Position numbers and translations under genes: made by a program
NCBI GenBank assembly: GCA_963715865.1
Contig: OY970280.1
Location: 512,001 to 576,000 of the forward strand
DNA: 64,000 bases
Direction of reading: 5' to 3'
Origin: Candidatus Bathyarchaeota archaeon
GTDB taxonomy: Archaea > Thermoproteota > Bathyarchaeia > Bathyarchaeales > Bathycorpusculaceae
Part shown: piece after piece, positions 36,769-40,080 of the stretch
Position numbering within the stretch: position 1 is the first letter of the stretch
How the letters are laid out: the number at the start of each line of letters is the position of its first letter
The notes under the pieces: generated by a model
Told to the model about the DNA's origin: nothing
The model's input: only the letters and a program-made list of their open reading frames with translations
The model's database searches: none

Positions 36769-37047
36769 ATGCCCGCTATAGAAGTTGGCAGAATATGCGT
36801 AAAACAATCAGGCCGAGAGAACGGCAAAAAATGTGTCGTAATAGATGTAATGGATAAAAGTTTCGTTTTAGTAACTGGTCCAAAGAAAATTACAGGAGTC
36901 AAGCGGAGAAGAGTCAACATAAACCATATTATGCCTCTCCAAGACAAGATTGAAGTTAAACGGGGAGCATCAGACGAGGAAGTTGCCCAAGTTTTAGAGG
37001 CTGCAGGCAAACTGCAAGATATGACGCAGACCGTTAAAACCGCGTAA
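36769..37047 (+). CDS. rpl14e: 50S ribosomal protein L14e
   Basis: [49 protein letters not shown]. Confidence 0.95.
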
Positions 37048-37110: not shown

Positions 37111-38157
37111 ATGCCTAGAATAATCCCTCCATGGGAAATCAAACGTGAACTGTTGACTAAAGCAGAGGACACGACCAACCCAAAGTATGGGCACAGGCCC
37201 TCTGAAAGACCAGCAAAAGAATACATCCAATACGGCACAATAAACCTTGACAAACCAGCTGGTCCAACAAGTCACGAAGTTGCCGCATGGGTAAAAAAAA
37301 TCATGCACCTGAACAATATCGGCCACGGCGGAACTCTAGAGGCTTAAGCAACAAGCCAGAGAAATCCCAAAGTGACCGGCATTTTACCCATCACCTTAGA
37401 GGATGCTACGAAGGTGGTTCAGGCGTTTCTCTACAGCGGCAAAGAATACGTTTGCGTAATGAAACTTCATGGAGATGTTAAAGAAGAACAAATTAAACCG
37501 GTTCTCAAAGAATTTGAGGATGAAATTTACCAGCGTCCACCTTTGCGTTCCTCAGTTAAACGGCAACTAAGAACCAGACGCATATACTACATAGACTATC
37601 TGGAACTTGATGGGCGCAATGTTCTTTTCAAAGTTGGCTGCGAAGCGGGAACATACATACGCAAACTCTGCTTTGACATCGGCGAAATCCTAGGCGTCGG
37701 CGCTCACATGCAAGAACTGCGCAGGACACGCTCAGGATCATTCATTGAAACTAGCGCTACAAAAGTTACCTTGCATGATGTGGCTTACTGGTTTGGGGAA
37801 TGGGAACAGAAAAAAGACGAAGCAATCCTGCACAAATTCATTGAACCTATGGAAAACGCGTTAACTTTGCTTCCGAAAATTGTGGTTCGTGACTCAGCTG
37901 TTGATGCACTTTGTCATGGTGCAAACTTGACTGCTCCAGGCGTATTGTCGGTTGAAGCAGGCATCGAGAAAGGTTCGATTCTGACTATTTTCACGTTGAA
38001 AGGTGAAGCAGTGGCGTTGGCGAAAGCGCTTGCCTCGACCGAGGAAATGTTAACTTTAAAGCATGGTGCTGTTGCTGCTCTCGAGAGAGTGCTGATGCTG
38101 AGGGGTACTTATCCGAAGGTTTGGAAAAGCGGTAACGTGAATGAGCAGAGACAATAA
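37111..38157 (+). CDS. cbf5: H/ACA RNA-guided pseudouridine synthase Cbf5, two exons (37111-37339, 37364-38157)
   Basis: NLDKPAGPTSHEV, GHGGTL|DPKVTG, KEYVC, YQRPP, CEAGTYIRKLC, ELRRTRSG, PUA domain; follows rpl14e. Confidence 0.93.
37340..37363 (+). other. 24-nt bulge-helix-bulge mRNA intron in cbf5
   Basis: CTCT-AGA-GGCTT...AAGCC-AGAG-AAA; cleavage after the 2nd nt of each bulge gives CTA GAT CCC (L-D-P); unspliced frame has TAA at 37345. Confidence 0.9.
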
Positions 38158-38764
38158 GGGCTTTGAACATTATTTTGCATCTGCGCCTAAGTCTGAAGCA
38201 AGGTTCGGTTTAGTTCGAACTTGTCTGTGTGGAACATTCTTCGAGTTTTTGACTGCTTCAAGCGTTTTTTCGAAGAGACGAGTTGATTTAGGCACCAGAC
38301 TATTAATCGAATCGATGGTTCTGCCGAAAGCAGGCTATGTTCTTGATATTGGTTGTGGGTATGGTGTTGTTGGGATAGTTGCAGCCGCTCTTAATGCAAA
38401 GCTAAGTGTAGTCATGACGGATGTGAACATGAGGGCTGTGCGTTTGGCAAGAAGAAATGTTGAATTAAACCAGGTGGTTAATGCTGAAGTGCGTTATGGT
38501 TACTTGTATGAGCCTGTTGAAGATTTAGTGTTTAGTTGTGTTCTTTCGAATCCCCCTGTAAGTGCGGGTATGGACACGGTAAAAGCCATAGTGAAAGAAG
38601 CCCCAAAAATCATGGCAGATAAAGCCAGTTTCCAAATGGTTATTCGATCTAAAATCGGCGCTAAAGTGTTTCCTTCCGTTTTCAACGAAACCTTTGGGAA
38701 CTGTACGGTTCTTGCAAGAGAAAGCGGGTTCCGAGTGCTCATGGGGCAGCATTTGGCAGTGTAG
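38141..38764 (+). CDS. RsmC/MJ0882-like class I RNA methyltransferase
   Basis: SVFSKRRVDLGTRLL, LDIGCGYGVVG, SNPPV. Confidence 0.85.
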   Translation: MSRDNKGFEHYFASAPKSEARFGLVRTCLCGTFFEFLTASSVFSKRRVDLGTRLLIESMVLPKAGYVLDIGCGYGVVGIVAAALNAKLSVVMTDVNMRAVRLARRNVELNQVVNAEVRYGYLYEPVEDLVFSCVLSNPPVSAGMDTVKAIVKEAPKIMADKASFQMVIRSKIGAKVFPSVFNETFGNCTVLARESGFRVLMGQHLAV

Positions 38765-39996: not shown

Positions 39997-40006
39997 AATT
40001 AAAAGG

Positions 40007-40080
40007 AGCCTCGAGCGGGCCTTGATCCCGCGGCCTGCTGCTTACAAGGCAGCCGCTCTACCGGGCTGAGCTATCGAGGC
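40007..40080 (-). tRNA. tRNA-Thr(UGU)
   Basis: Acceptor GCCTCGA/TCGAGGC, D stem GCTC/GAGC, anticodon GCTGC-CTTGTAA-GCAGC, T stem GCGGG/CCCGC; CCA not fully encoded. Confidence 0.93.

Follow-up and report, generated by a model that had tools for sequence, protein, structure and literature searches.

A probable bulge-helix-bulge intron splits the catalytic aspartate codon of cbf5 in Bathyarchaeia

Results

A 24-nt insert divides the catalytic aspartate codon of cbf5

The DNA analyzed here, referred to below as the window, is a stretch of 64,000 nucleotides from a Candidatus Bathyarchaeota genome assembled as a single 2.35-Mb contig and 97.9% complete. Positions are those of the window, and the cbf5 features described lie on its plus strand. 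The cbf5 gene spans positions 37111-38157, and its reading frame is broken by a TAA codon at 37345-37347. Its identity is given by the Pfam domain DKCLD in the first open reading frame (ORF) piece and by TruB_N, TruB_C_2 and PUA in the second. Exon 1 (37111-37339), which comprises 76 codons plus the G of an Asp codon and holds DKCLD (7e-20) and the start of the TruB fold, aligns with residues 8-81 of P. abyssi Cbf5 (PDB 2aus) and ends in GHGGTL. Exon 2 (37364-38157), which consists of the AT of the Asp codon, 263 codons and the stop, aligns from the CCC at 37366 with residues 83-334 of the same structure (E value of 1.7e-91). Since exon 1 reaches residue 81 and exon 2 resumes at residue 83, the catalytic Asp alone is split.

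The exons are separated by a 24-nt insert at positions 37340-37363, located between the first and the second base of the catalytic Asp codon, the junction reading GGC GGA ACT CTA G / AGGCTTAAGCAACAAGCCAGAGAA / AT CCC AAA GTG ACC GGC. Excision of the insert joins G to AT as GAT (Asp), restores GHGGTLDPKVTG and yields an uninterrupted Cbf5 of 340 amino acid residues; the catalytic Asp of GGTLD is encoded only after such splicing. With an A at position 37340 and another at 37364, the insert may equally be drawn one base farther right (37341-37364), the product being unchanged. The insert keeps the frame by its length, and GTG at 37372 starts a second ORF. As a preliminary description of this DNA had stated, the unspliced message terminates, the in-frame TAA being the third codon past the exon 1 junction. 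The same description expected annotation pipelines to misread the gene, and callers indeed split it into a 78-aa ORF and a C-terminal ORF of 257 or 261 aa; the latter (257-261 aa) is annotated as “H/ACA ribonucleoprotein complex subunit 4”.

Upstream of cbf5 lies a 92-aa ORF (36769-37047) that we take, judging by eye, to resemble ribosomal protein L14e. Downstream, a 207-aa ORF (38141-38764) overlaps the end of cbf5 by 17 nt and, again judged by eye, presumably resembles a methyltransferase. The neighbourhood also contains a tRNA-Thr(TGT) gene on the minus strand (40005-40080).

The junction folds into a bulge-helix-bulge motif

RNAfold was run on positions 37318-37382 and returned a fold of the bulge-helix-bulge (BHB) type as both the minimum-energy and the centroid structure. 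The fold has the hBHBh′ architecture, with two 3-nt bulges on opposite strands, a 4-bp helix between them and flanking helices that contain one outer mismatch. In the central helix, CTCT of exon 1 (37334-37337) pairs with AGAG of the insert (37358-37361), a pairing found in the minimum-energy fold and by covariation. The bulges, AGA on the 5′ side (37338-37340) and AAA on the 3′ side (37362-37364), are unpaired in the minimum-energy fold and carry the predicted cuts at 37339/37340 and 37363/37364. Within the insert, GGCTT (37341-37345) pairs with AAGCC (37353-37357) in a hairpin (37341-37357) with a 7-nt loop, AAGCAAC. This is the geometry that the preliminary description had read from the letters, including the imperfect outer helix.

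The motif is flanked by helices made of exon sequence. In the proximal helix, GGAA (37330-37333), which is GGGA in relatives, pairs with TCCC (37365-37368). The window copy has GGA instead of GGG, giving one A·C mismatch or, in the minimum-energy fold, a bulged A, and this defect makes the motif slightly relaxed compared with most relatives. The distal exon-exon helix, which sits past a 3×3 internal loop, pairs TCGG-C-CAC (37319-37326, Gly-His codons) with GTG-A-CCGG (37372-37379, Val-Thr-Gly codons) in the minimum-energy fold.

Archaeal EndA cleaves after the second base of each BHB bulge, and this rule applied to the window bulges yields the same junction as the protein alignment demands. 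The fold z-score of the window sequence is modest (−1.95), with 10 of 200 shuffles folding at least as well. When the same pairing criteria were applied with fixed geometry to the whole genome, 79 of 2.35 million positions complied, a chance rate of 3.4e-5; a BHB located exactly at the site of frame repair is therefore not a coincidence.

Inserts at this cbf5 site recur across families of the class and of the phylum

We searched genomes, arranged by the taxonomy of GTDB release 232, using exon 2 and an intron-less full-length relative as queries, and located the exon 1/exon 2 junction in the loci of 165 relatives. The closest cbf5 relatives of the window are Candidatus Bathyarchaeia/Bathyarchaeota records from peat and soil, and the same-genus genes cluster with Bathy6 and Candidatus Bathycorpusculum records. 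At the same cbf5 site, relatives carry 71 distinct inserts of 11-75 nt, and nearly all relatives fold individually into a BHB. One relative with an insert identical to that of the window, in a separate metagenome-assembled genome (MAG), SPRUCE 274, is hereafter called L033.

The distribution is uneven. Within the genus of the window, 18 of the 20 other readable genes are intron-less, the only carrier named being G023 (L014). In other families of the order, six of nine loci contain an insert, and among the best 80 genome records 27 do (17-32 nt). At class level, inserts of 11-23 nt were found in 15/15 families, each represented by one genome whose gene gave two matches, and five more family codes of the class have in-frame inserts with stops. 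With five families of the window's order added, at least 25 family codes of Bathyarchaeia have an insert at this site; a survey of MAGs of this class for inserts at the Asp codon had been proposed in the preliminary description. Intron-less cbf5 genes were fetched from f24, f21, f31, f33, f27 and f13. Twenty families of the same phylum were fetched from beyond the class. The 19 chosen because the open frame preceding exon 2 is short all have a BHB-folding insert (11-75 nt), and the twentieth, f69, has a long open frame and is intron-less. Further phylum families also seem intron-less by their long open frames, and these include two large families with complete genomes of about 1.6 and 2 Mb. 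Because family selection in the phylum was biased in this way, these data speak for the breadth of the intron and not for its frequency.

Several loci stood apart in the survey. At the size extremes stand an intron of 75 nt, whose fold is branched, and mini-introns of 11 nt (L155 G439:C10, L127 G043:C39, L151 G329:C20). Two genomes encode cbf5 in a single open frame of 873 aa (G032:C66:1837-4215) and 797 aa (G048:C11 near 292005-292640), respectively; in G032, residues near 100 of exon 2 are separated by about 1.5 kb, which could represent an intein or some other large insertion in frame. Bathyarchaeal cbf5 genes also occur in two records with bacterial titles, L074 (DATGZD010000062.1, Candidatus Sulfotelmatobacter sp.) and L094 (CAWKDO010000012.1, uncultured delta proteobacterium), which are probably mislabelled or mixed bins.

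Covariation, exonic constraint and stop codons

We aligned 30 distinct intron-bearing junctions and scored their pairing. Paired bases fill 95.6% of the cells, and double changes occur at six pairs. The central helix is paired in 30/30 junctions, with UA-to-CG double changes at one of its pairs in 12 of them, and four of the five pairs of the intron stem show compensatory changes. None of 500 shuffles reached the covariation score, and sliding the partner strand by one column lowered pairing to 53-56%. Sequence, fold and covariation thus uphold the original proposal that a BHB intron divides the catalytic Asp codon as G/AT.

The exonic parts of the structure are conserved as well. The proximal helix GGGA/TCCC is fully paired in 43/71 intron-bearing genes versus 2/84 intron-less genes, and the distal helix GGTCAC/GTGACC has at least five of its six core bases paired in 47/71 versus 15/84, counts whose direction is clear and whose independence is overstated by the relatedness of the sequences. 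Since codons make up both the outer helices and the 5′ strand of the central one, their synonymous sites are constrained. Comparison of the window gene with that of L033 gives a dN/dS of 0.08 with a dS of 0.47 and shows that the gene is under purifying selection. In this pair, dS is 0.18 in exon 1 and 0.58 in exon 2, and the intron is identical at 24/24 positions (L033:1462-1506 versus 37327-37371); the low exon 1 dS together with the identical intron suggests either strong constraint or recent exchange at the junction.

An in-frame stop, read in the frame of exon 1, is present in 50/71 distinct inserts, compared with 15 and 15 in the other frames, and in 33 of the 50 stop-bearing inserts it is the third codon, as in the window. 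Such a stop closes each of the 21 inserts with a length divisible by three, and each of the 21 stop-free inserts shifts the frame. Every insert is therefore either stop-bearing or frameshifting, making it impossible to obtain a full-length, Asp-less protein by read-through. This closure may reflect selection against a dead Cbf5 that still binds its partners. The in-frame stops may also follow in part from the stem-loop sequence itself (GGCTT-AA), and the trinucleotides TAA and TAG are frequent in the intron hairpin loops.

The genome encodes a candidate splicing machinery

Two EndA-family genes are present in the genome. The first paralogue, L001:1462-2013:-, retains the catalytic His together with the crenarchaeal loop GYYGKPLGIPKPK, and its best PDB matches are crenarchaeal chains, 2cv8 from S. 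tokodaii and 3p1z_B from A. pernix. In the second (L002:1234-1782:+; G000:C1 near 1187157-1187705), Thr replaces the catalytic His, for which reason it is probably a structural subunit; the best match of this paralogue is the homotetrameric M. jannaschii enzyme (1a79) and not a crenarchaeal beta subunit. Together, these features point to a putative host EndA of the heterotetrameric, (αβ)2 type, which the literature associates with relaxed motifs and with the cbf5 intron (PMC5829648; PMC2738675). RtcB is intact, Nop10 and Gar1 are encoded, and about seven tRNA genes contain short introns in the anticodon loop. ARAGORN also called tRNAs with “introns” of 2043, 1229 and 427 nt (G000:C1 338177-340318, 1015542-1016861 and 598507-599029, respectively), which may be spurious, large tRNA introns or split genes.

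Based on these results, positions 37340-37363 are very probably a BHB intron in the pre-mRNA of the only cbf5 gene of this genome, the cleavage and ligation of which we infer. This reading rests on the sequence and the fold, on conservation with covariation, on constraint at exonic synonymous sites and on the presence of the enzyme genes. No RNA run was listed as containing the whole gene. Three metatranscriptome runs, selected from six RNA runs in which a small share of the sampled words occurs, gave 0 contigs on cbf5 and are uninformative on its expression. Proteins of 341 aa from a 90% cluster were considered as candidate products of spliced transcripts and rejected; their identity to the spliced product does not exceed 91%, and they represent intron-less relatives.

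Alternative explanations for the insert

One alternative accepts splicing as described, yet holds that the intron is kept as a regulator, Cbf5 synthesis being dependent on, or throttled by, EndA and RtcB; the in-frame stop would then block production of a catalytically dead, partner-sequestering protein from unspliced RNA. A role as a negative regulator was proposed by Watanabe and Yokobori (PMC2738675), and the identity of the intron between the window and L033 despite an exonic dS of 0.47, the enrichment of stops in frame 0, found in every insert that is a multiple of three, and the conserved exon helices are all compatible with it. On the other hand, the many intron-less genes in the window's own genus indicate that any such regulation is dispensable, neither the sequence nor the length of the loops is conserved, and the stop enrichment is partly tied to GGCTT-AA, with related sequences overstating its independence. 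We therefore regard a regulatory role as rather unlikely. Autoregulation through mimicry of a T-arm or of an H/ACA substrate was rejected as unsupported, because the hairpin loops of the minimum-energy folds range from 3 to 16 nt and differ in sequence, leaving no conserved T-arm-like element. The preliminary description's suggestion that the exon side might bind Cbf5 or serve regulation finds no support in these loops.

The broken frame and the automated calls of 78 and 261 aa would also be expected from a pseudogene created by a small insertion, Cbf5 function being lost or otherwise supplied. This is highly improbable given the low dN/dS over both exons of two intron-bearing genomes, the retention of Nop10 and Gar1 and the maintenance of the BHB, with covariation, in dozens of families. 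Moreover, a second cbf5 copy was not found in the 97.9%-complete, single-contig genome.

Alternatively, the insert could stay in the RNA, with ribosomes bypassing it or reading through it, or with the two ORFs translated apart and assembled. The window insert is in frame and GTG at 37372 opens the second ORF, as such a scheme would need. By either route, however, the protein would lack the catalytic Asp, and the conserved BHB would be left without an explanation. Insert lengths also fall into the three classes modulo 3 as 21, 21 and 29 of 71, a distribution incompatible with read-through. We give this possibility scarcely any credence.

An assembly or sequencing artefact, for which nothing speaks except that the genome is a metagenome assembly, can be dismissed with near certainty, since a contig from an independent peat metagenome run spans 37128-37412 gap-free (about 70% of the sampled words occur in 14 DNA runs, and the source sample may be among them), the L033 MAG has the identical insert, and the exact 78-aa ORF ending within the insert is recorded from 47 contigs of several sources.

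The insert probably has a history of repeated losses or regains

In the Cbf5 tree, the basal grade of the window's family consists entirely of intron-bearing genes. It is followed by a well-supported clade of 79 rows, 75 intron-less and four intron-bearing, in which the window and L033 (support of 97) are nested among 50 intron-less rows (support of 98). A single loss in the family was rejected by the AU test of a tree uniting all 75 intron-less rows (p-AU of 0.0036), a group defined after the trait had been seen and tested on the tree of the cbf5 gene itself. This rejection implies either some seven precise losses or a single loss with three regains; the rarity of the intron in the window's genus likewise requires several losses or regains. 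In sliding windows, the window gene is nearer to intron-less relatives except over 60 nt around the junction, a pattern that a short conversion tract and structural constraint explain equally well.

Two introns of different families, L072:1456-1506 and L025:2269-2319, are alike in their central helix, CCTT/AAGG, which is unusual, and in an ATA bulge, although the gene of L072 belongs to the mostly intron-less clade. This likeness is perhaps a hint that the junction region was exchanged laterally.

With respect to common descent with the crenarchaeal introns versus independent insertion, the same site is filled in many families, and the intron is too short for phylogeny. Our results indicate that the cbf5 intron is probably old in the phylum and has undergone repeated precise losses or regains.

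Discussion

The data presented here lead us to propose the following pathway for cbf5 expression. The transcript would fold so that CTCT of exon 1 pairs with AGAG of the intron between the two 3-nt bulges. An EndA of the (αβ)2 type, encoded elsewhere in the genome, would then cut at the two predicted positions, and RtcB would ligate the exons, rebuilding GAT and hence a Cbf5 of 340 residues, which serves the H/ACA pseudouridylation complex as catalytic subunit. Unspliced RNA would give at most a 78-aa stub because of the intron TAA.

Yokobori et al. (2009) assigned the gain of the cbf5 intron to the ancestor shared by Desulfurococcales and Sulfolobales, linked it to heterotetrameric EndA and reported no such intron in the Thermoproteales, Cenarchaeum, Nitrosopumilus and Korarchaeum that they sampled (PMC2738675). 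Its presence in at least 25 family codes of Bathyarchaeia and in 19 other families of the phylum indicates a much older origin or repeated gain. Tentatively, we envision a scenario, possible rather than probable, in which the intron predates the split between the bathyarchaeal and crenarchaeal classes, or repeatedly re-enters the site, and persists because the codons of GGTLDP supply the BHB helices. Its closure to translation would protect against a dead Cbf5 sequestering Nop10, Gar1 and guide RNAs, and in the window's genus the intron would have disappeared on several occasions or come back through recombination with neighbours that carry it.

In the literature searched, no archaeal intron within a coding sequence has been published except that of cbf5, which has been viewed as a curiosity of two hyperthermophilic orders. 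That the intron occurs in the majority of the bathyarchaeal families sampled, and in many others of the phylum, replaces the inferred history of one gain in one clade by that of an element which is old or keeps recurring and has often been lost precisely. Provided that splicing proceeds as we infer, mRNA splicing by the tRNA machinery would be a normal part of the expression of an essential gene in abundant environmental archaea. Because gene callers split cbf5, marker-gene sets, completeness estimates and pseudogene counts of these MAGs are affected. The occurrence of intron-bearing and intron-less alleles among close relatives in the window's genus also offers a natural system in which to study intron loss and regain.

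Three known systems resemble the one described here. The BHB intron in the 5′ UTR of HVO_1309 in Haloferax volcanii is also an mRNA substrate of the splicing endonuclease; it lies in an untranslated leader and is processed by a homodimeric euryarchaeal enzyme, whereas the window intron splits a codon within coding sequence (PMC7714728). Archaeal tRNA introns are likewise short and hairpin-forming, with two 3-nt bulges on either side of a 4-bp helix and cleavage behind the second base of each bulge, and they are processed by EndA and RtcB, the enzymes presumed to act on the cbf5 insert. In contrast to tRNA introns, the substrate here is a coding mRNA whose helices are built of codons, and no tRNA body aids its recognition.

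The closest parallel is the cbf5 intron of crenarchaea such as Aeropyrum pernix and Sulfolobus spp., whose pre-mRNA was reportedly the subject of earlier studies by Watanabe in 2002 and Yoshinari in 2006. It interrupts the same gene at the same nucleotide position of the catalytic Asp codon, as is apparent from Yokobori et al. (PMC2738675), and it has the BHB cleavage motif in common with the window intron, often in a relaxed form. The published crenarchaeal introns are non-coding and 16-44 bp long, a range into which the 24 nt of the window fit and which the 11-75 nt of its relatives widen (PMC2738675). Its hosts have a hetero-oligomeric EndA with the crenarchaeal loop, as is likely here judging from the two EndA genes, and its spread is patchy with secondary loss, which is also what we observed. 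The two differ in that the crenarchaeal hosts are hyperthermophiles (Desulfurococcales and Sulfolobales) and the host of the window intron is a mesophilic member of Bathyarchaeia from peat, and in that splicing was demonstrated experimentally for the crenarchaeal intron and is predicted in the present case. Papers of 2020 and 2025 cite only the crenarchaeal cbf5 studies for introns in coding sequences and, in agreement with the preliminary description, we found no published report of a cbf5 intron in Bathyarchaeia in the literature searched. The element in the window is the known cbf5 intron, here in a new lineage.
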